The position numbers and the translations under genes were made by a program. From positions 2,897 to 66,896 of the forward strand of contig JBOGVG010000103.1 in NCBI GenBank assembly GCA_050692435.1: a stretch of DNA of 64,000 bases. Direction: 5' to 3'. Positions 8,795 to 64,000 of this stretch are shown piece by piece. The notes below the pieces were generated by a model. The model did not search any database. It saw nothing but the letters and a program-made list of their open reading frames with translations, and had not been told where the DNA came from. The stretch comes from Actinomycetota bacterium. Lineage in GTDB: Bacteria; Actinomycetota; UBA4738; HRBIN12. Every line of letters starts with the position of its first letter. Within the stretch, counting starts at the first letter, position 1.

Positions 8795-9218
8795 GTCCAT
8801 CCTCGAAGCTTTGCGCAAGCCCCACCGCGTCGTCCACGCCCACTGCGACCTGCCGTGCGGAATCTACGACCCGGCCCAGGCCCGCATCGAGGCCGAGTCT
8901 GTCAAGGCCGTCCAGGCCCGGTACCAGGCCCCGGACAAGTTCAAGACGGCGGGCGAGACGGCGGAGGACTACAAGTCCCGGTGCCTTCAGATCAAGGAGG
9001 AGCGGGCCAACCTGGTCAAGGAGCACCTGTGGGTGCTGTGGACCGACTACTTCAAGCCCGAGCACCTCGAGGCGTACCCCCAGCTCCACGAGCTGTTCTG
9101 GAAGGCCACTAAGGAGGCCGGGGCGGCGAAGAAGTCCCAGGACCCGGAGCAAGGCGAGAAGCTGCTCACCCTGATCGACGAGATCGCGAAGATCTTCTGG
9201 GAGACCAAGGCCGCGTAG
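8793..9218 (+). CDS. sodN: Nickel superoxide dismutase precursor
   Basis: A leader (MSILEALRKPHRVVHA) is followed by the Ni-hook HCDLPCGIYDP. The C-terminus ends IDEIAKIFWETKAA. GGAAGGAGG RBS is present. Confidence 0.95.
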   Translation: MSILEALRKPHRVVHAHCDLPCGIYDPAQARIEAESVKAVQARYQAPDKFKTAGETAEDYKSRCLQIKEERANLVKEHLWVLWTDYFKPEHLEAYPQLHELFWKATKEAGAAKKSQDPEQGEKLLTLIDEIAKIFWETKAA

Positions 9219-54623: not shown

Positions 54624-54698
54624 GGGCCTGTAGCTCAGCTCGGTTAGAGCGCATCCCTGATAAGGATGAGGTCGTTGGTTCAAGTCCAACCAGGCCCA
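54624..54698 (+). tRNA. ileT: tRNA-Ile (anticodon GAT)
   Basis: Hand-folded cloverleaf: acceptor GGGCCTG/CAGGCCC, D stem GCTC/GAGC, anticodon stem CATCC/GGATG with loop CTGATAA, and T arm GTTGG-TTCAAGT-CCAAC. CCA is not encoded. Confidence 0.95.
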
Positions 54699-54719
54699 CC
54701 GCGAAAGGAGGAGACTCGG

Positions 54720-54980: not shown

Positions 54981-55841
54981 ATGGCGGTGAGCGAGGCCTG
55001 GAAGACAGCCGAGCAGGCCGCCCGCGCGGCGCAGGTGGAGCTTCGGCCCTGCACTTCCCTGGAAGATGCCGACGAGATCCTGCGGATCATGATCGCCACC
55101 TGGGGAGAGCACCAGTTCGTGCCCAGGGAGATGATCCGGGCCCTGTCCGACAGCGGGAACGAACCGTACGGGGCGTTTCGGCAAGGCGAGATGGTCGGCT
55201 ATGTCCTGGGGTGGATGGGGTCCGACCGAGACGGGCCGCACGTCCATTCCCACATGCTCGCGGTTGCTCCCGAGCTCCGCTCTCGGGGCGTGGGGTACGC
55301 CCTGAAGCTCGCGCAGCGGGCCCAGGCCCTCGAGCAGGGCTACGGCGTGGTCCGGTGGACCTTCGACCCGCTCCAGTCCCGCAACGCGCACTTCAACATC
55401 GGCAAGCTCGGGGTGGTATGCGACCGGTTCCACCGCAACTTCTACGGGGCCATGACGGACGTGATGAATCGAGGGGAGCGGAGCGACCGGCTCGTGGTGC
55501 GGTGGGACCTGGACCGGGCGGCCGGACCTCGGCCGGTCCCGAAGGGTGACGAGGTCGCCGTGCTCGAGGCGAACGGACCGGACAATCTGCCCCGACCGGT
55601 GCGCGCGGAGCCGATCGCGCCGGACGGAGGGAGCCTGCGGGTGTGCATCCCCCACGACTACGCGGGCATGAAGCAACGGGACCCGGGCCTGGCAGCTGAA
55701 TGGCGAGAGGCCGTGGGAGATGTGTTGGAGGAGTGTTTCGGCCACGGCGCGATCGTCGTGGCCTTCGGCTCGGCCGGCGACCGAGCGCCGGGTTACCGCC
55801 TCGTCTTCCCAGGCGCCGCCGACGATTGGGCGGGCCGATGA
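54981..55841 (+). CDS. GNAT-family acyltransferase
   Basis: The acyl-CoA binding motif region LAVAPELRSRGVGYALKLAQRAQA is followed by RWTFDPLQSRNAHFNIGKLG. It is translationally coupled (ATGA) to the enolase-superfamily gene. Confidence 0.7.
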   Translation: MAVSEAWKTAEQAARAAQVELRPCTSLEDADEILRIMIATWGEHQFVPREMIRALSDSGNEPYGAFRQGEMVGYVLGWMGSDRDGPHVHSHMLAVAPELRSRGVGYALKLAQRAQALEQGYGVVRWTFDPLQSRNAHFNIGKLGVVCDRFHRNFYGAMTDVMNRGERSDRLVVRWDLDRAAGPRPVPKGDEVAVLEANGPDNLPRPVRAEPIAPDGGSLRVCIPHDYAGMKQRDPGLAAEWREAVGDVLEECFGHGAIVVAFGSAGDRAPGYRLVFPGAADDWAGR

Positions 55842-57007
55842 CGCGGATCCGGGCCGTCGAGCTCCGGCTGGTCTCGCTCCCCTTGGTGCGTCCCTTCAGG
55901 ACCAGCTTTGGCCAGGAGACGGAGAAGGTCTGCATCGTGGCACGGGTGGAGACCGACGACGCCGAGGGATGGGGCGAGTGCGTGACCGGTCCCGAACCGG
56001 GGTTCTCGGAGGAGTTCAACGAGGGTGCCTGGTCCGTGATCCGCGACTTCCTCGCCCCGGCCCTGTTCGGGGCGGGCGACATCTCGGCCGAGGGGCTGGA
56101 TTGGGCTTTCGCCTTCGTCCGAGGGAACCCCATGGCCAAGGCCACCCTGATCGACGCCGTACTCGATGCGGAGCTTCGGGCGGGGGGAGCCTCACTCGCC
56201 CGGTACCTCGGTGCCGAGCGAGACCGGGTGGCGTGTGGCGTCTCCGTGGGCATCGCCCCCACCGCCGAGGCGTTGGTGGAAGAGATCGGCAGCTATCTGG
56301 CCGAGGGATACCGACGGATCAAGCTGAAGATCCAGCCTGGCCTCGACGTCGAGCGGGTGGCCCCGGTGCGCGAGGCCTACCCCGAGGTCCTCCTGTCGGT
56401 AGACGCGAACGCCGCGTACACGCTGGAGGATGCCGGGACCTTCCTGGCCCTCGACGCCTTCGACCTGCTCATGGTGGAGCAGCCCTTGCACCACGAGGAC
56501 CTGGTGGACCACGCGGAGTTGCAACGGCGGATCCGCACGGACATCTGCCTGGACGAATCGATCCGCTCGGCGACCGGGGCGGGGGCCGCGTTGACGCTCG
56601 GTTCCTGCCGGATCGTGAACATCAAGCAGGGACGGGTCGGTGGGTTGCTGGAGGCGAGGCGCGTCCACGACGTCTGCCGTTCCGGGGGTGTTCCGGTGTG
56701 GTGCGGAGGGATGCTCGAGACCGGGATCGGCCGGGCAGCCAACCTGGCCCTGGCGGCGCTCCCCGGATTCACCTTGCCCGGGGACACGAGCGCCAGCCGC
56801 CGGTACTTCCACGAGGACCTCACCGAGCCCTTCGAGATGGACTCCGACGGGACGATGGCCGTGCCCCAGGGGCCGGGGCTCGGCGTGGAGCCCCGCCCCG
56901 AGCGCCTCACGGAATGCACCGTCCGGACGGAGCTCCTGAGAAAAGGTGACAAGATCGCCCATCCCGGCTTGACCGCCGGAGGTGGAGTCCCATACAGTGC
57001 GCGATGA
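55838..57007 (+). CDS. menC: Enolase-superfamily o-succinylbenzoate synthase / N-succinylamino-acid racemase
   Basis: MR/MLE-type: IKLKIQPG (KxK), SVDANAAY, MVEQPL, LDES and NIKQGRVGG. The OSBS versus NSAR role is ambiguous. Confidence 0.8.
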   Translation: MTRIRAVELRLVSLPLVRPFRTSFGQETEKVCIVARVETDDAEGWGECVTGPEPGFSEEFNEGAWSVIRDFLAPALFGAGDISAEGLDWAFAFVRGNPMAKATLIDAVLDAELRAGGASLARYLGAERDRVACGVSVGIAPTAEALVEEIGSYLAEGYRRIKLKIQPGLDVERVAPVREAYPEVLLSVDANAAYTLEDAGTFLALDAFDLLMVEQPLHHEDLVDHAELQRRIRTDICLDESIRSATGAGAALTLGSCRIVNIKQGRVGGLLEARRVHDVCRSGGVPVWCGGMLETGIGRAANLALAALPGFTLPGDTSASRRYFHEDLTEPFEMDSDGTMAVPQGPGLGVEPRPERLTECTVRTELLRKGDKIAHPGLTAGGGVPYSAR

Positions 57008-57050
57008 GAGGCCGCTGGGACCTTCGGGTTTCGGCGGTCTCTCGCTTTTG
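57006..57050 (+). terminator. Intrinsic terminator after menC: 17-bp stem, TTCG loop, TTTT tail
   Basis: GAGAGGCCGCTGGGACC-TTCG-GGTTTCGGCGGTCTCTC (13 Watson-Crick pairs plus 4 G-U pairs) followed by GCTTTTG. Confidence 0.7.
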
Positions 57051-57169: not shown

Positions 57170-57197
57170 TTGACCGTTCCGCCCGGCGAGGTACTTT
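57170..57197 (+). promoter_or_regulatory. Candidate promoter of the mau-like operon: -35 TTGACC, 16-nt spacer, -10 TACTTT
   Basis: Read directly, about 70 nt upstream of ATG 57268. Confidence 0.4.
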
Positions 57198-57267
57198 GCG
57201 GGGGGCCTCCGGTCGCGCCATGCTAGGGGGCGGGCGTGGGCCGAGAGATGCGAACGAGGGTGATGCG

Positions 57268-57900
57268 ATGAAGAAGCGTATTCTGCGGGCGGGCGAGATC
57301 GAGATCGAGGACTCCCAGGGCAAGGTCCGGGCCCGGCTGGGGGTGACGAACGACGACTCGCCGTTCATGGCCCTCTACGGCTCCGACGAGCGGCTCCGGG
57401 CCCGGTTCGGCGTCCAGCTCGACGGGTCGGCCGGGCTGGCCATCGCGGACGACGAGGGCAAGGTTCGGGCCACGTTCGGCCTGTTCTCTGACGGCTCGGC
57501 CAGCTTGGCCATGGTCGACAGGAACGGGAAGGTTCGCGCCAAGTTCGGGCTGGGGACCGAGGGTTCCCCCACCCTGGCCCTCCGTAACAAGGACGGGCAG
57601 CTCGGGTTCGTGTACAGCCTTGCGCAGCAAGGCTCTCCAACGATCTCCCTCCAAGACGAGGACGGGAAGGTCCGGGTCCGGCTGGGGCTGGCCGCGGAGG
57701 GGTCACCGATCCTCCGCCTGCTGAACAGGGAAGGCGAGCTCAGGGCGATCATGGGCCTCACCTCGGACGGCACGCCGGTGATCCAGTTCATGGACAAGAG
57801 GGGCGAGCCCATGTGGATGGCGCCCGAGAAGTTCCCCGAGGAGTTCTCCATCGAGGGGGAGCCCATGGCCGAGCCCGTACCGGACCCCGGGGAGGCCTAG
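57268..57900 (+). CDS. Novel repeat protein: seven and a half 23-residue repeats, no signal peptide
   Basis: GAGGGTG RBS. The repeats are FMALYGSDERLRARFGVQLDGSA / GLAIADDEGKVRATFGLFSDGSA / SLAMVDRNGKVRAKFGLGTEGSP / TLALRNKDGQLGFVYSLAQQGSP / TISLQDEDGKVRVRLGLAAEGSP / ILRLLNREGELRAIMGLTSDGTP and further units. The C-terminal tail is acidic. Confidence 0.7.
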   Translation: MKKRILRAGEIEIEDSQGKVRARLGVTNDDSPFMALYGSDERLRARFGVQLDGSAGLAIADDEGKVRATFGLFSDGSASLAMVDRNGKVRAKFGLGTEGSPTLALRNKDGQLGFVYSLAQQGSPTISLQDEDGKVRVRLGLAAEGSPILRLLNREGELRAIMGLTSDGTPVIQFMDKRGEPMWMAPEKFPEEFSIEGEPMAEPVPDPGEA

Positions 57901-57904
57901 CCGG

Positions 57905-58417
57905 GTGTCCGGCTGGTGGGTGGCCGCCTTCGCAGTCCAATGGGTACTGGTCGTCGTCCTGTGCGTCGTGGTGGTGGCCCTGGCCAGGCAGGTGGGCGTC
58001 CTCCACCTGCGCCTCGGACCGCTGGGCGCGCTGGAGGTCGATGAGGAGGGGCCGCCCCTCGGCGAGCCCGCCCAGCCGGTGACCGCCAGCGGACCCGATG
58101 GCGTTCCGACCGTGCTCGGAGGCCCCGGTCTGGGGCGCCTCGTCATGTTCGTCTCGCCCACCTGTCCCCTCTGCGAGCAGGTCCTTCCCTCGGTGGCCGC
58201 CGCGGCAAGCCTCTCCGGCCTGGTCCCGCAGGTGGTGTCGGACCCTGCTGCCGAGCACGCCTGGGGGGTGCCGGGCGTTCCTTTCGTGGTGGTCCTGAAC
58301 GAGGCGGGCGTTGTGCGGGCCAAAGGCACCGTGAACAACCTCGAGCAGCTCGAGGGGCTGGTGGACACGGCCTCCCGCCGCGCGGCCGAGCGGATCTTGG
58401 GGGTACCCGCCGGCTGA
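57905..58417 (+). CDS. MauD-like membrane-anchored thioredoxin-fold protein (CPLC)
   Basis: N-terminal TM segment followed by ALARQVGVLHLRLGPLGAL, then FVSPTCPLCEQVLP, then GVVRAKGTVNNLEQLEGLV. These match the MauD accessory-protein pattern as I recall it. GTG start. Confidence 0.7.
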   Translation: MSGWWVAAFAVQWVLVVVLCVVVVALARQVGVLHLRLGPLGALEVDEEGPPLGEPAQPVTASGPDGVPTVLGGPGLGRLVMFVSPTCPLCEQVLPSVAAAASLSGLVPQVVSDPAAEHAWGVPGVPFVVVLNEAGVVRAKGTVNNLEQLEGLVDTASRRAAERILGVPAG

Positions 58418-58944
58418 TGGGCTCGGATCTTGCCCGCGCCGAGGTCGAGCTGGCCCGCCGGACCAGCCGTCGCTCGTTCCTCGGCACGGTGGGCCGCGCG
58501 GTGGTGGCGTTGGCCGGTGGGCCGTTCGTGGCCGTGGCCCTCGCTCCGGAGCGGGCCGAGGCGCACCACATCTGCGGGCATATCTTCACGACGGGCTCCT
58601 GCCCTCACCCGTACGCGCCGCGCTCCCGGGTCGACGCGTACGGGTTCCCGGTGCATCCCAAGCACGGCTATCCCGTCGACGACGATGGGCGGATCTACAC
58701 CGACATCCGGCAGCGCCGGCGGAAGGTCTGCCAGGCTCGGGTCCCCGATGAGTACCCGGGCGTGAAGGACCCGCGCTACGGGGGCGGGTGGAGCCGGTGC
58801 TGCGACGGCAGGGTCCGGCACATCCAGGACTGTTGCTCGAGCTCGCGGATCCGCATCAACGGCGATCCCTCTGTTCGAGGGTACTGCCCGAAGAACCTTC
58901 GGGTGTTCTGCATCACGTACCGGGAGCTGAACGTGGCGTGTTGA
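58417..58944 (+). CDS. MauA-like (methylamine dehydrogenase light-chain-like) Cys-rich protein with Tat signal
   Basis: Twin-arginine leader ELARRTSRRSFLGTVGRAVVALAG. The mature part has 10 Cys and a single Trp (GGGWSRCCDGRVRHIQDCCS). The ATG overlaps the upstream TGA. Confidence 0.7.
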   Translation: MGSDLARAEVELARRTSRRSFLGTVGRAVVALAGGPFVAVALAPERAEAHHICGHIFTTGSCPHPYAPRSRVDAYGFPVHPKHGYPVDDDGRIYTDIRQRRRKVCQARVPDEYPGVKDPRYGGGWSRCCDGRVRHIQDCCSSSRIRINGDPSVRGYCPKNLRVFCITYRELNVAC

Positions 58945-59015
58945 CGGAGCCTGTGGCGATCGCCGTGGTCGTGGCGTCGCTCGTCGCGGGGGTGTCCACG
59001 CTCTTCGGCCCCTGA
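58938..59015 (+). CDS. Possible 25-aa hydrophobic micro-ORF (VLTEPVAIAVVVASLVAGVSTLFGP)
   Basis: The GTG overlaps the MauA-like stop (GTGTTGA) and the ORF fills the 80-nt gap before the next gene. No independent support. Confidence 0.2.
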   Translation: MLTEPVAIAVVVASLVAGVSTLFGP

Positions 59016-59024
59016 GGGCTCTCG

Positions 59025-60161
59025 ATGGTGGAGACCATCACGCCCGTGGTGCACGGGGGACGAAGGGGAAGGTGGGCGGGAGACGTGGCGCTCCACGTGG
59101 CCGGCGCGACGCTTTCGGCCGCGGCGTTCGGGGCGATCCTGGGGGCGGCCGGGTCGGTCCTAGGGGCTCCATGGGGACGTGGGGGCCTGGTGGTCGTCGT
59201 CGTGGCCTCGGTGATCTACCTGCTGCGCGAGGCGGGGGTGGTACCGGTGCCCGTTCCCCAGCTCCGCCGTCAGGTGCCCGAGTGGTGGCGGGCCTTCTTC
59301 CCGGCCCCGGTGGCGTCGTTCCTGTACGGGGCGGGCCTGGGGATCGGCTTCCTCACGTTCTTGCGACAAGGGACGCTGGTCGCCGTCGCCGCGGCCGCGG
59401 CTTCGTCGGGGAGGCCCGGTGTGGGAGCGTTGCTCGTCGCTCCATTCGGGGTCGCGCGGGGCCTGTCGGTGCTCGCGACGGCCCGGATCCGAGCGCCGGA
59501 GGAGGGGCGGGCGCTGATCGGACGCCTGGAGGCCGCGGCGTCGGCACCGGCGTGGCGGACCGCCCATGTCGCCGCCTTGGGCGCGATGACGGCGACGACG
59601 GCCTTCGCCGTGGCAGGCTCCGGGGCCGGCGTCCGGGTCGGAGCGGTGGCGGCTGGAGTGCTCGGCGCGGTGTTCGCCTGGTCCGCCGGGGGCAAGCTCC
59701 TGAGCCCGAGGGACTGGCGCCGGGCCCGCTCCGCCCACGGTCTGCGAGGCCCGCTCGACCAGTTCGCCGCGATCGGCGCACCGGTCGCGGAGGCCGGGGT
59801 CCTCGGGCTCGTCGTCGTCGGGTTGCACCGAACGGCCGGCATCGCCGGTCTGCCCCTGCTACTCGTGTTCTCGCTCGCCGTCCTGCGGGCTCGGCGAAGG
59901 GCCGGGGACCTCGTTCCGTGTGGGTGCTTCGGAACGGTAAAGGCGCATGACTACCGGGTGCTGCTCCTTCGGAACGCGGTCCTGACCGTTGCCGCGGCGG
60001 TCGCCGCGGTCTGGGGGGTGGATAGCCCTCGGCTTCGGACTCCGGGGATCCCCACCGGCCCCGACGTTCTCCCCCTGGCCTTCGCCGTCGTCGGCCTGAG
60101 CGTGGCGGCGTGGACGATGGTGCGGTCGGTCCGATCCCTCGGCCGGCGGGGAGCTGCGTGA
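59025..60161 (+). CDS. Polytopic membrane protein: unknown N-terminal domain fused to a MauE/DoxX-like domain (CGCFG)
   Basis: The C-terminal half (FAWSAGGKLLSPRDW...VAEAGVLGLVVVG...LVPCGCFG...LLRNAVL) fits the MauE pattern. The N-terminal ~190 aa has 4-5 TM segments (RRQVPEWWRAFF...FLYGAGLGIGFLTF). Confidence 0.65.
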   Translation: MVETITPVVHGGRRGRWAGDVALHVAGATLSAAAFGAILGAAGSVLGAPWGRGGLVVVVVASVIYLLREAGVVPVPVPQLRRQVPEWWRAFFPAPVASFLYGAGLGIGFLTFLRQGTLVAVAAAAASSGRPGVGALLVAPFGVARGLSVLATARIRAPEEGRALIGRLEAAASAPAWRTAHVAALGAMTATTAFAVAGSGAGVRVGAVAAGVLGAVFAWSAGGKLLSPRDWRRARSAHGLRGPLDQFAAIGAPVAEAGVLGLVVVGLHRTAGIAGLPLLLVFSLAVLRARRRAGDLVPCGCFGTVKAHDYRVLLLRNAVLTVAAAVAAVWGVDSPRLRTPGIPTGPDVLPLAFAVVGLSVAAWTMVRSVRSLGRRGAA

Positions 60162-60772
60162 AACGAGGGTTCCGCGGCGTCACGATGGTGGTCGCGGTGC
60201 TGGCGTCGATAGGGCTCTCCGCGATCATCCCGGCCCTCGCCGCCCGGACGAACCTGGGCGATGCGAACGACAGCCCCGGGCCCCTGGACCTGCGGCACAT
60301 TCGGTTCGACCAGGACGCCGGCCCGGCCTCATGGGCGCTGCACACGTTCGGCTCCTGGACCGTCGACGACATCCAGGACTCGGGCTTCGTGTTGGTGATC
60401 CTCGACACGCTGGGGAGCCCCGACGAGGACTACCTAGTTGTCGTCCGGTCCGACGGACCGAAGCTGGTCGGCCTGCTCCTCCGTCGGCGGACGGGCGGCC
60501 GGGACACCGAGATCGGCCGGGTCCGGGTGGCGAAGTCCGGAGCCGATGGGGTCACGATGACGGTGGACATGGGCAAGCTGAATTTCGGGCCGACGCGAAC
60601 GTTGTACTTCTGGTGGGTACTCTCGCAGTTCACCGGGAAGGAATGTCCGCGGACCTGTCTGGACCGCGCGCCCGAGGAACGGGCCGTGCAGCAGAAGATC
60701 CCGAGCCCGTCGCCCACGCCCACCCCCTCACCCAGTCCCACCGACAGCCCCACGCCGTCGCCGAGCCCGTAA
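60158..60772 (+). CDS. Secreted protein of unknown function with SP/TP-rich C-terminal tail
   Basis: The GTG overlaps the upstream TGA. Signal peptide VKRGFRGVTMVVAVLASIGLSAIIPALAA. The tail reads PSPSPTPTPSPSPTDSPTPSPSP. Confidence 0.6.
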   Translation: MKRGFRGVTMVVAVLASIGLSAIIPALAARTNLGDANDSPGPLDLRHIRFDQDAGPASWALHTFGSWTVDDIQDSGFVLVILDTLGSPDEDYLVVVRSDGPKLVGLLLRRRTGGRDTEIGRVRVAKSGADGVTMTVDMGKLNFGPTRTLYFWWVLSQFTGKECPRTCLDRAPEERAVQQKIPSPSPTPTPSPSPTDSPTPSPSP

Positions 60773-60810
60773 CCCGAAGGCGGGCGCCTCGGCGCCTATG
60801 ATTGGGTGCC

Positions 60811-60848
60811 GGGGACGTAGCTCAGTCGGTAGAGCACCTGCTTTGCAA
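60811..60848 (+). pseudogene. tRNA-Ala (TGC) 5' fragment: acceptor 5' strand, D arm, anticodon stem 5' strand and loop only
   Basis: GGGGACG-TA-GCTC-AGTCGGTA-GAGC-A-CCTGC-TTTGCAA. The next bases are CCGGA rather than the required GCAGG. I found no T arm or CGTC(C/T)CC acceptor 3' strand in the next 3 kb. Confidence 0.7.
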
Positions 60849-61292
60849 CCGGAACAGCTCGAACGGTGTGCTGACCAGCGAAAACGCTCGGTCGGAGCGA
60901 GCGACACGGGCGCAGTTATCCGCTTAATCTCATGCCGTTGTGGACCGAGTGGGAACGGGTCTCGCGAGCCGGCGGGACCATTCGGTTGACCCTGGGCAGT
61001 GAGCCTTACAGGAAAGATCTCTTCGTAACCGAGGGCGTAGTGAGGCCCAGCGACGTCTACGCGGAGCGAAAGCGGCCGACTGCGACGGTCGGGAGTCGTG
61101 AGCACGATTCGTGTCGGTAGGAACTGGACGGGAGGCAATGCTCCTCGGTCGGAGGCCGACGCCTTCCAGACGACGGCCTGTTGGTGGCTTTCGCTTGCGG
61201 CGCTCGGGGGTCTCGGTCTGAACGCCGTCTTCGCTGGTGGTGGGCTGAACTAGTTTGTCCTGAAGGAACTTGCGAGGAGAGGGGAGGAACAG
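60849..61292. other. ~440-nt non-coding tract of lower GC with several small hairpins
   Basis: No frame gives a recognisable protein. My hand count of 60901-61020 gives about 61% GC, against about 75% for a 60-nt sample in the operon. Hairpins include AGCG-AAAA-CGCT (60877-60888), CACG-ATT-CGTG (61103-61113) and GTCGG-AGG-CCGAC (61148-61160). Confidence 0.5.
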
Positions 61293-61801
61293 ATGGCCCG
61301 TAAGATGCTGATTGCCGAGCAGTCCATCGCGACCAACGGCGTCACTAGCGTGACGCCCTGGACGGAAGCACGCGATCGCTTCGCGGAGGCGAATAGGTAC
61401 TGGCTAGCGACGGTGCGCCCAGACGGGAGACCACATATCATGCCGGTGTTCGGTGTCTGGGTGGGCGATGCTCTGTACTTCACAGCGGCCCGCACGAGCC
61501 GCAAGGCGAAGAACCTCGCGCTAAACGCCCGATGTGTGGTCGCGGCTGAGGTTCCCACCCTCGATGTGGTCGTCGAGGGCGAAGCCGTGAGGGTAAGCGA
61601 CGAGGCGAAGCTCCATCTCGTGGCCGACGCATACGCGTCCAAGTACGAGTGGCCCCTGACGGTGCGCGACGGCGCCTTCTTCGCGGAGTACGGAGCCCCC
61701 TCCGCCGGCTCGCCCCCGTACGACCCGTACGAGATGACGCCGGTGACGGGCTTCGGTCTCGGCATGGACGGCCATTCGGGGCCGCGCGTTGGAAATTCTA
61801 G
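61293..61801 (+). pseudogene. PPOX-class (pyridoxamine 5'-phosphate oxidase family, F420/FMN-binding) gene with apparent 3' frameshift
   Basis: WLATVRPDGRPHIMPVFGVWVGDALYFTAARTSRKAKNL... is typical of the family. An alternate frame ends HGRPFGAARWKF-TAG (61763-61801), resembling the family C-terminus. As assembled, the gene reads through in frame into the next gene. Confidence 0.55.
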
Positions 61802-61826
61802 ACGGGGTGCTCCCAGGCGACGAGCC

Positions 61827-62570
61827 ATGAAGCGCGGACTGTACTTGGCACCGTTCGACGAGTTGGCGGATCCGCGTCTCCTGGCCGAGCTCCCCAGGGT
61901 TGCTGAGTCCCGAGGTTGGGACGGCCTGTTCCTGTGGGATCGGATCGCGTATCCGCCCTCGGACCGCGCCGTGGCCGACCCATGGGTGGGACTCAGCGCC
62001 ATCGCTTCCAAGACGGACAGCCTTCGTATCGGGCCGATGATCACTCCGCTCTCGCGGAGGCGCGTCCAGAAGGTCGCACGGGAGACGGCCACGCTGGACC
62101 ACCTGAGCAACGGGCGTCTGAAACTGGGCGTCGGGCTCGGCAACACCGACGATCTCAGGCCTTACGGAGAGGCCATCGATCCACTCGAGCGCGCGCGCCT
62201 GCTGGATGAGGGCTTGGAGCGGCTCAGTGGATTCTGGAACGGCGCATTCCGCCCCCTCCCGGTACAGCGCCCGCGGATCCCCGTCTGGGTCGCGGCGAAC
62301 TGGCCCAATAGGGGCCCGGTCCGACGCGCGGCTCGATGGGACGGGTTGTTCCCGATCGATCTCCCCGGACCCGAGCAGCTCGCCGAACTCGCCGAAGCTC
62401 TTCGGCAGGAGCGTGCCGGGAGCGAGGATCCCTTCGATCTCGTCGTCGAGGTGCCGCCCGGAGCCGACGCTCATGCGTGGGAGGCCGCTAGCGCGACATG
62501 GGTGCTCACGAGCATCGAGCCGCAGCCCCCGGAGCACGAGATACGTGGGGTGATCGAAGCTGGTCCCTGA
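61827..62570 (+). CDS. LLM-class flavin/F420-dependent oxidoreductase (short form)
   Basis: MKRGLYLAPFDELADPRLLAELPRVAESRGWDGLFLWDRI...LGVGLG.... It shares the frame of ORF 61293..62570, and its codon usage is less GC-biased than the rest of the window. Confidence 0.6.
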   Translation: MKRGLYLAPFDELADPRLLAELPRVAESRGWDGLFLWDRIAYPPSDRAVADPWVGLSAIASKTDSLRIGPMITPLSRRRVQKVARETATLDHLSNGRLKLGVGLGNTDDLRPYGEAIDPLERARLLDEGLERLSGFWNGAFRPLPVQRPRIPVWVAANWPNRGPVRRAARWDGLFPIDLPGPEQLAELAEALRQERAGSEDPFDLVVEVPPGADAHAWEAASATWVLTSIEPQPPEHEIRGVIEAGP

Positions 62571-63916: not shown

Positions 63917-64000
63917 GTGTCGCCCTCCTCTGGCGATGAGACCAGTCATAGTGGTTTCGTGTGTGACACCGGTTGTAGTCGTTTCATGCGAGCGAGCGCA

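Follow-up and report, generated by a model that had tools for sequence, protein, structure and literature searches.

A conserved operon of MauF, MauE and MauD homologues and a cysteine-rich Tat-signal protein in Actinomycetota as a probable dedicated oxidative-folding pathway

In this study we describe a five-gene operon in a stretch of 64,000 nucleotides from an Actinomycetota bacterium (assembly GCA_050692435.1, contig JBOGVG010000103.1, positions 2,897 to 66,896 of the forward strand); the whole stretch is hereafter called the window. In order, the operon encodes a repeat protein, a homologue of MauD, a small cysteine-rich protein with a predicted twin-arginine translocation (Tat) signal, a fusion of MauF and MauE, and a secreted protein. 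We interpret it, with moderate confidence, as a dedicated, leader-tagged pathway for extracytoplasmic oxidative folding together with its client, the cysteine-rich third protein. The novelty lies in the combination of a known maturation module, to which MauF is now added, with an unannotated and structurally unmatched client and with two lineage-specific partners.

Scans of all five proteins against Pfam, NCBIfam and PADLOC returned just matches to MauE, weak matches to MauD or thioredoxin and a match to a Tat signal. The MauE domain, which had been recognised before in the fourth gene, matched PF07291 with 77.2 bits (gathering score 27; E 1.8e-21; residues 205-328) and carries the motif CGCFG at residues 299-303 (59919-59933). 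Moreover, it has the lysine in the first transmembrane helix (SAGGKLL) and the glutamate in the second (PVAEAG) which were described for MauE in a recent preprint (bioRxiv 10.64898/2026.03.05.709764). The same preprint reported that MauE replaces DsbB in E. coli via its CXC site, probably with quinone, and that about 10% of the MauE-bearing species have MauA (bioRxiv 10.64898/2026.03.05.709764). Because MauE can take the place of DsbB through this site and occurs mostly in species free of MauA, we propose a dedicated oxidative-folding pathway for the operon. By analogy to the preprint, the MauE domain of the window is predicted to act as a DsbB-like disulfide oxidase.

For the second gene, an annotated mau cluster on plasmid NZ_CP030128 of Indioceanicola profundi (order mauF-B-E-D-A-J...G-M-N) served as the reference. 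The encoded protein matched the MauD model TIGR02661 with 78.1 bits (E 5.7e-22) and did not reach the equivalog cutoff of 188.6 bits. It was 34% identical to annotated MauD over anchor and domain (E 3e-28), and both proteins contain the motifs LARQxGxLH in the anchor and FVSPTCPxCE. Residues 1-37 form an N-terminal hydrophobic segment, and the CxxC motif (CPLC, 58163-58174) is invariant in 19 family members. A mauD homologue was present in every related locus. The name MauD-like given to this protein in the original prediction is thus appropriate in the sense of a homologue and not of an equivalog, and the protein is predicted to be membrane-anchored, with a thioredoxin fold and a CxxC site.

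The fourth gene had been described as a MauE fusion. This is correct for the MauE part, and what the description missed is that the N-terminal half corresponds to MauF. In the window protein this half had no Pfam match of its own, and sequence and profile searches of the PDB with it gave nothing meaningful. When compared with annotated MauF by hhalign, it aligned over 136 columns, PxPQxRRQVP among them, with a probability of 97.8% (E 1.1e-12), and tblastn with MauF matched 72 loci as well as the window (E 2e-8 in the window). Invariant features of the domain are the start MxETIxPVVHGG, the motif PQLRRQVPxWWR (59256-59291) and H24. We assign the N-terminal half to the MauF family on the strength of these alignments. 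Therefore, the operon carries the full set of MauF, MauE and MauD. In Methylobacterium and Paracoccus, mauF, mauE and mauD were reportedly found to be needed for accumulation of the methylamine dehydrogenase (MADH) small subunit, in genetic work attributed to Chistoserdov (1994) and van der Palen (1997).

The client shares one part with the MADH small subunit MauA, namely its leader. It matched the Tat-signal model TIGR01409 with 18.4 bits (cutoff 16.7), its hydrophobic h-region spans residues 24-43, and it is predicted to be exported by the Tat pathway. Alignment with the MauA leader by hhalign gave a probability of 96.9% (E 1.3e-10) over 29 columns, and the alignment of the two families covered the leader only. 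A hidden Markov model (HMM) of the MauA leader gave about 85 client genes scores of 18-33 bits and every other open reading frame (ORF) at most 8 bits, the control being 9,461 six-frame ORFs from about 1 Mb of related DNA, a small sample with a few other Tat-type signals. We regard the likeness of the leader to that of MauA as real according to these comparisons, and the leader as the only MauA-like part of the protein.

In contrast, the mature domain showed no relation to MauA. At E<=1 the client had no match to PF02975, versus 120 of 120 genuine MauA relatives that carry this family. With the leaders removed, comparison of the mature client with MauA by hhalign gave a probability of 0.4%; it rose to 1.1% when 78 sequences from another client subfamily (see below) were used and was again 0.4% with a combined profile. 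The AlphaFold model of the client has a predicted local distance difference test (pLDDT) score of 83-95 at residues 61-140 and below 70 at residues 141-160. When it was compared with the PDB by Foldseek, the best E value was 0.74, template-modelling scores were below 0.25, and no chain of MADH or aromatic amine dehydrogenase (AADH) was among the top 50 matches. Sequence and profile searches of the PDB also found no MADH or AADH chain and nothing meaningful. The designation of the third protein as MauA-like therefore stands for the leader and fails for the mature domain, which has neither the family match nor, in the model, the fold of a MADH light chain.

The invariant residues of the mature domain comprise ten cysteines, a single tryptophan (Trp125), Tyr156 and the stretch C53-G-H55...C62-P-(H64), and the ten cysteines are invariant across both subfamilies. 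In the alignment of MauA, two tryptophans are invariant, W107 and W158 (in the motifs SSW and IIWCFG), whereas the client has only W125; the client position that can be paired by eye with the second MauA tryptophan is Tyr156. Since there is a single invariant tryptophan, a tryptophan tryptophylquinone (TTQ) cofactor made from two tryptophans is impossible in the client. A histidine brace or an amino-terminal copper- and nickel-binding (ATCUN) site was also considered for the two histidines at the mature start and was rejected, as the second subfamily does not conserve these histidines.

The remaining genes of a mau cluster are missing. No matches to genuine MauB, MauG, MauJ, MauM and MauN were obtained by tblastn in the window, as had been claimed before, nor in 84 related loci. 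Amicyanin was not matched either, although this was a weak test. Together with the lack of PF02975, the absence of the five Mau proteins agrees with the original prediction insofar as it saw here a resident, uncharacterised, cysteine-rich system with Tat export and not a methylamine dehydrogenase. The prediction had also left room for a tryptophan cofactor; the two-tryptophan form of this idea is ruled out, and a cofactor derived from Trp125 survives in a reading of the client as a highly diverged quinoprotein small subunit of MADH type, with Trp125 joined to a cysteine or to Tyr156 and with the fifth protein as large subunit. The client occupies the mauA position behind mauD, the second subfamily has the order E-D-client, the leader is of the MauA type, the mature protein is of similar size to MauA, rich in cysteine and contains a DCC motif, and Trp125 and Tyr156 are both invariant. 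We nevertheless consider a quinoprotein quite improbable, given the missing PF02975 match, hhalign values of 0.4-1.1% even with 78-100 sequences, the lack of MADH and AADH light chains among the fold matches in the PDB, one tryptophan versus the two invariant ones of TTQ, and the absence of MauG, MauB or another known quinone-cofactor maturase within 8 kb in the 84 loci.

The association of the client with the three Mau proteins is strongly conserved. The client family comprises 945 protein clusters, and at least 463 species-representative genomes contain a relative. Across the best 80 client-bearing genomes at species level, which are metagenome-assembled genomes (MAGs) and nearly all labelled Actinomycetota or Actinomycetes, client identity was 64-92%. 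Arrangements were counted in 57 species-level loci with complete flanks. The same-strand five-gene operon that had been proposed for the window was found in identical order in 45 of these, which is far beyond chance. Among the 11 loci that lack the repeat gene, eight have a split form, in which a separate mauF (about 194 aa) follows the client, and mauE and the fifth gene are divergent upstream. These split-form loci (L056, L062, L070, L073, L075, L078, L080 and L083) have a mauE of about 175 aa and no repeat gene.

A second client subfamily was found on at least 493 metagenome contigs. Its members are longer by an insert of about 25 residues and align to the first subfamily by hhalign with E 2e-65. 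Here, the order is mauE-mauD-client-mauF, which equals the canonical order E-D-A (L088-L167; for example L117:7091-9238 and L142:7112-9232), and MauF keeps the cysteine of the motif WSPCG. Homologues of the repeat protein and of the fifth protein were not detected beside the second subfamily. An EttA-like ABC-F ATPase recurs on its upstream side and a gamma-glutamyltranspeptidase on its downstream side; otherwise only lineage synteny was seen. In one locus of this subfamily a natural ORF of 453 aa (P0130, L086:7636-8997) fuses MauE, MauD and the client, whose twin-arginine motif and h-region are kept internally, and a MauF-like gene starts beside it at position 8991. In every locus of both subfamilies the client lies between mauD and mauF.

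According to the pathway that we propose, the client precursor of 175 aa would be made in the cytoplasm with a leader whose N-region (a helix and RTSRRSFLG) is of the MauA-leader type. It would then be exported and cleaved after A-E-A49. The membrane-anchored MauD would oxidise the ten cysteines of the client through its CxxC site, probably to five disulfides, and would itself be re-oxidised by MauE through the CGC site. We infer that electrons would pass from there to the respiratory quinone pool, as is the case when DsbB serves DsbA. The cysteine-free MauF-like domain, being fused to MauE, would probably act as a scaffold or receptor which keeps the leader-bearing client at the oxidase. The fifth protein, with one CxxxC motif and a Pro/Thr-rich tail, may be a constant partner or a second client in this lineage. 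The acidic repeat protein may be a frequent accessory, possibly an escort of the basic client prior to export.

Several points weigh against this interpretation. Tat export normally carries folded proteins, and folding before export has to be reconciled with oxidation after export, for which MauA is a precedent. Genuine MauF has a first transmembrane helix and an SPCG cysteine that the MauF-like domain of the window lacks. Because this cysteine is kept by genuine MauF and by the second subfamily, the role given to MauF is a guess. The position of the operon in the core region near oriC is also compatible with a housekeeping oxidase of general function. In such a generalist disulfide system MauE and MauD would correspond to DsbB and DsbA, and the client would be one of many or an unrelated neighbour; the location in the conserved core region would fit this, and MauE has been argued to be a generalist oxidase (bioRxiv 10.64898/2026.03.05.709764). 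However, a generalist system needs no linkage of the kind observed here, with the client flanked by mauD and mauF in all loci of both divergent subfamilies, fused to MauE and MauD in a natural ORF and equipped with the leader type of MauA. We therefore regard a generalist system as unlikely, though worth keeping in mind. To our knowledge, MauA is the only other client linked with MauF, MauE and MauD.

A further objection concerns the motif C-x-H...C-x-H, as two of the client cysteines might bind metal and not form a disulfide. Taken further, the client could be a Tat-exported metalloprotein or redox carrier, in which C53-G-H55 and C62-P-(H64) bind metal or an Fe-S cluster loaded before export, the MauF-like domain, as a member of the DsbD_2/UreH-like transporter superfamily, handles the metal, and MauE and MauD oxidise the other eight cysteines. 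The two CxH motifs near the mature N-terminus and the predicted Tat export would fit this, as would the invariant histidines of the MauF-like domain (in the start MxETIxPVVHGG, and H24) and its matches to DsbD_2 (PF13386). On the other hand, these matches are weak and were found in 5 of 19 family members, some second-subfamily members have Ala or Gly at the position of H64, and the client matches no known metal-site family or fold. We judge a metalloprotein to be rather unlikely. A more far-reaching idea, which appears improbable to us, relates the client to the MADH small subunit as an evolutionary sibling by pathway and not by fold. Its maturation would be leader-directed, like that of a ribosomally synthesised and post-translationally modified peptide (RiPP) at the scale of 126 aa, with MauF as leader receptor and with a product that carries a self-generated cross-link or quinone at Trp125, Tyr156 or a neighbouring cysteine. 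If true, this would be a previously unseen redox cofactor protein in uncultured soil Actinomycetota.

Besides the client and the Mau homologues, the operon encodes two further proteins. The repeat protein consists of eight exact repeats of 23 residues, with an autocorrelation that peaks at 23 and at 46 residues, has an isoelectric point (pI) of 4.95, and lacks a signal peptide, transmembrane helix or hydrophobic segment. No family was assigned to it in Pfam, NCBIfam or PADLOC. Its only sequence matches in the PDB were engineered OspA constructs of beta-hairpin repeats (5z1o, 3eex and 3cka; best E 2.8e-7), which show the type of repeat only and not homology. This suggests a soluble cytoplasmic beta-hairpin repeat protein, predicted to form a flat or solenoidal array of hairpins. 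A relation to Redoxin/YtfJ (E about 0.02-0.05) was rejected as a common hairpin motif. In 45 of the 57 complete loci the repeat gene immediately precedes mauD; it is 2 kb away in one and absent from 11. The original prediction placed it in the slot of mauB, which finds little support as those 11 loci and all of the second subfamily lack the gene; the latter has no gene in the B position, and its order is the canonical E-D-client. We regard the repeat protein as a lineage-specific accessory.

In contrast to the repeat gene, the fifth gene was present in all 57 complete loci and always followed mauE, even where mauE is inverted. Features of the encoded protein are a Sec-type signal with a hydrophobic N-terminus (residues 4-31) and the Asp-rich N-terminal motif D-x-N-D-x-x-G-x-L-D (60260-60289). 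Its CxxxC motif (60644-60658) is invariant, and its tail is rich in Pro, Ser and Thr (60701-60769). No match was found in Pfam, NCBIfam or the PDB. Eight homologues are indexed, and its AlphaFold model (pLDDT 52.8) is too poor for classification, so that its Foldseek matches are meaningless.

The opposite charges of the repeat protein (pI 4.95) and the mature client (pI 9.2) would also suit a secreted, cationic, disulfide-rich toxin or antimicrobial made by RiPP-like logic, with the acidic repeat protein as immunity protein or antidote. There is a precedent in Streptomyces, where MauE and MauD stand beside cysteine-rich candidate RiPP precursors (PMC7794033). However, identities of 64-92% among the best 80 genomes and a fixed locus in the core genome are unlike genes in an arms race, 11 of 57 loci and all of the second subfamily lack the repeat protein, and the PADLOC scan gave no matches. 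Accordingly, we hold a toxin to be very improbable.

The features of the locus are listed in Table 1. All five ORFs were confirmed on the plus strand at the coordinates first proposed. The first and second genes are separated by 4 nt, the second and third overlap by 1 nt, 80 nt lie between the third and fourth, and the fourth and fifth overlap by 4 nt. The NCBI gene calls on the contig match the third and the fifth gene (P0001, 175 aa, and P0391, 204 aa), both with 100% identity.

Table 1. Coordinates of the features described, in positions of the window
Feature	Position	Strand	Description
tRNA-Ile(GAT)	54624-54700		
Terminator-like hairpin	57006-57043	+	18-bp stem, UUCG loop, then GCUUUUG (U-rich tail)
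Repeat protein gene	57268-57900	+	210 aa
mauD-like gene	57905-58417	+	MauD homologue
Client gene ("MauA-like")	58417-58944	+	175-aa Tat-signal protein
Client leader	58417-58563	+	RR motif 58465-58485
Predicted mature client domain	58564-58941	+	126 aa, pI 9.2
mauF::mauE fusion gene	59025-60161	+	378 aa
MauF-like domain, four transmembrane helices	59025-59609	+	N-terminal half of fusion, cysteine-free
MauE domain	59610-60161	+	C-terminal half of fusion, PF07291
Fifth gene, secreted beta-rich protein	60158-60772	+	204 aa
tRNA-Ala(TGC), 5' 38 nt	60811-60848	+	3' locus boundary; gene intact here in relatives

The strong terminator that had been noted upstream of the operon was found as a hairpin of -36.8 kcal/mol (z -4.4), and none of 200 shuffled sequences was equally stable. 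It lies immediately 3' of the stop codon of an MR_MLE gene, and this terminator-like element is predicted to end transcription of that gene and to form the 5' boundary of the operon. The promoter is less clear. The hexamers TTGACC and TACTTT do occur at 57170-57197, as had been stated. However, they failed in the consensus scan, with a -10 hexamer of 3/6, and the sole promoter-like match in the scan (56969-56998) lies within the upstream gene; therefore, this putative promoter is unverified.

Downstream, the tRNA fragment of the original prediction proved to be the beginning of tRNA-Ala(TGC). As far as the anticodon loop it is identical to the gene that the closest relative has intact, and beyond the loop it is unrelated. 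The 3' half was not found downstream as far as position 64000 of the window, and an Rfam scan of 60700-61400 gave no match and so no evidence of an intron. The broken tRNA could be the scar of an integration or rearrangement, or a mis-assembly of the MAG at the tRNA. Together with about 440 bp that follow it and contain no called gene or Rfam match, the fragment spans 60811-61290. Right after this comes an ORF of 425 aa (61293-62570) with a PNPOx-like N-terminal domain and a luciferase-like monooxygenase C-terminal domain.

The wider context comprises recF, gyrB, gyrA, a gene of the major facilitator superfamily, tRNA-Ile, a GNAT gene and the MR_MLE gene. The neighbourhood recF-gyrB-gyrA marks the core region near oriC, and the operon lies here between tRNA-Ile and tRNA-Ala, in line with the position described earlier. 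The GC content, said earlier to match the host genome, is like that of the flanks (0.70-0.75 in the operon versus 0.65-0.73 in the flanks). In the interval between tRNA-Ile and the operon, the GNAT acetyltransferase gene (54981-55841) overlaps the gene of the MR_MLE enolase superfamily (55838-57007) by 4 nt, and the same pair is found upstream of the operon in one relative (L001).

The locus is of interest for several reasons. Natural clients of MauE besides MauA have not been defined so far, and the locus would supply one, which is hard-wired to MauE, MauD and MauF through operon order and natural fusions. MauF here accompanies MauE and MauD uncoupled from TTQ chemistry. The leader of MauA is found on a client with an unrelated mature domain, from which follows the testable idea that MauF, MauE and MauD recognise the leader and not the fold. 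The client itself represents a strongly conserved family without annotation or a detectable structural relative. Among uncultured Actinomycetota the system is widespread, and the client occurs in at least 463 genomes at species level and on hundreds of contigs from soil metagenomes.

Among known systems, the small-subunit branch of the mau pathway, in which MauF, MauE and MauD act on the precursor of MauA, shares all three accessory homologues with the operon. Like MauA, the client is encoded directly behind mauD, is small and cysteine-rich, and has a long Tat-type leader homologous to that of MauA; the second subfamily shows the same order E-D-client. The differences are that the mature client is not homologous to MauA as judged by HMM, by profile-profile comparison or by fold and has one tryptophan and no TTQ pair, and that the locus is without MauB, MauG, MauJ, MauM and MauN, with amicyanin unmatched in the weak test. 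Moreover, MauF is fused to MauE in the window and has lost the N-terminal transmembrane helix with its SPCG cysteine, the locus has two more conserved genes, which encode the repeat protein and the secreted protein, and the host is a monoderm actinomycete-phylum bacterium and not a proteobacterial methylotroph.

A literature search for MauE together with disulfide and twin-arginine returned nothing relevant. The MauE proteins of the recent preprint, in which MauF and Actinomycetota are not mentioned (bioRxiv 10.64898/2026.03.05.709764), belong to the same Pfam family as the MauE domain of the window and share the CGC-FG loop, the lysine of the first and the glutamate of the second transmembrane helix, the independence from MauA and a nearby partner with thioredoxin fold. 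In contrast to them, MauE of the locus is tied to one client, MauD and MauF, and is fused to MauF in the window or to MauD and the client in P0130. In Streptomyces, MauE was described in candidate RiPP clusters beside precursors with at least eight cysteines and without other mau genes, apart from MauD in one of three (PMC7794033). These decRiPPter clusters resemble the operon in that MauE and MauD occur outside methylamine metabolism and beside a cysteine-rich, leader-bearing product. They differ in their short, predicted and unvalidated precursors, whereas the client has a predicted folded domain of 126 aa and a Tat leader, is accompanied by MauF as well and, by description, belongs to a different family. 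Finally, DsbB-DsbA and VKOR-thioredoxin rely on a membrane oxidase from an unrelated family and are generalists, with no client gene in the operon and no recognition of a leader. What they would have in common with the proposed oxidative-folding pathway is the principle that a quinone-linked membrane oxidase re-oxidises a CxxC protein of thioredoxin fold, which in turn oxidises exported clients.

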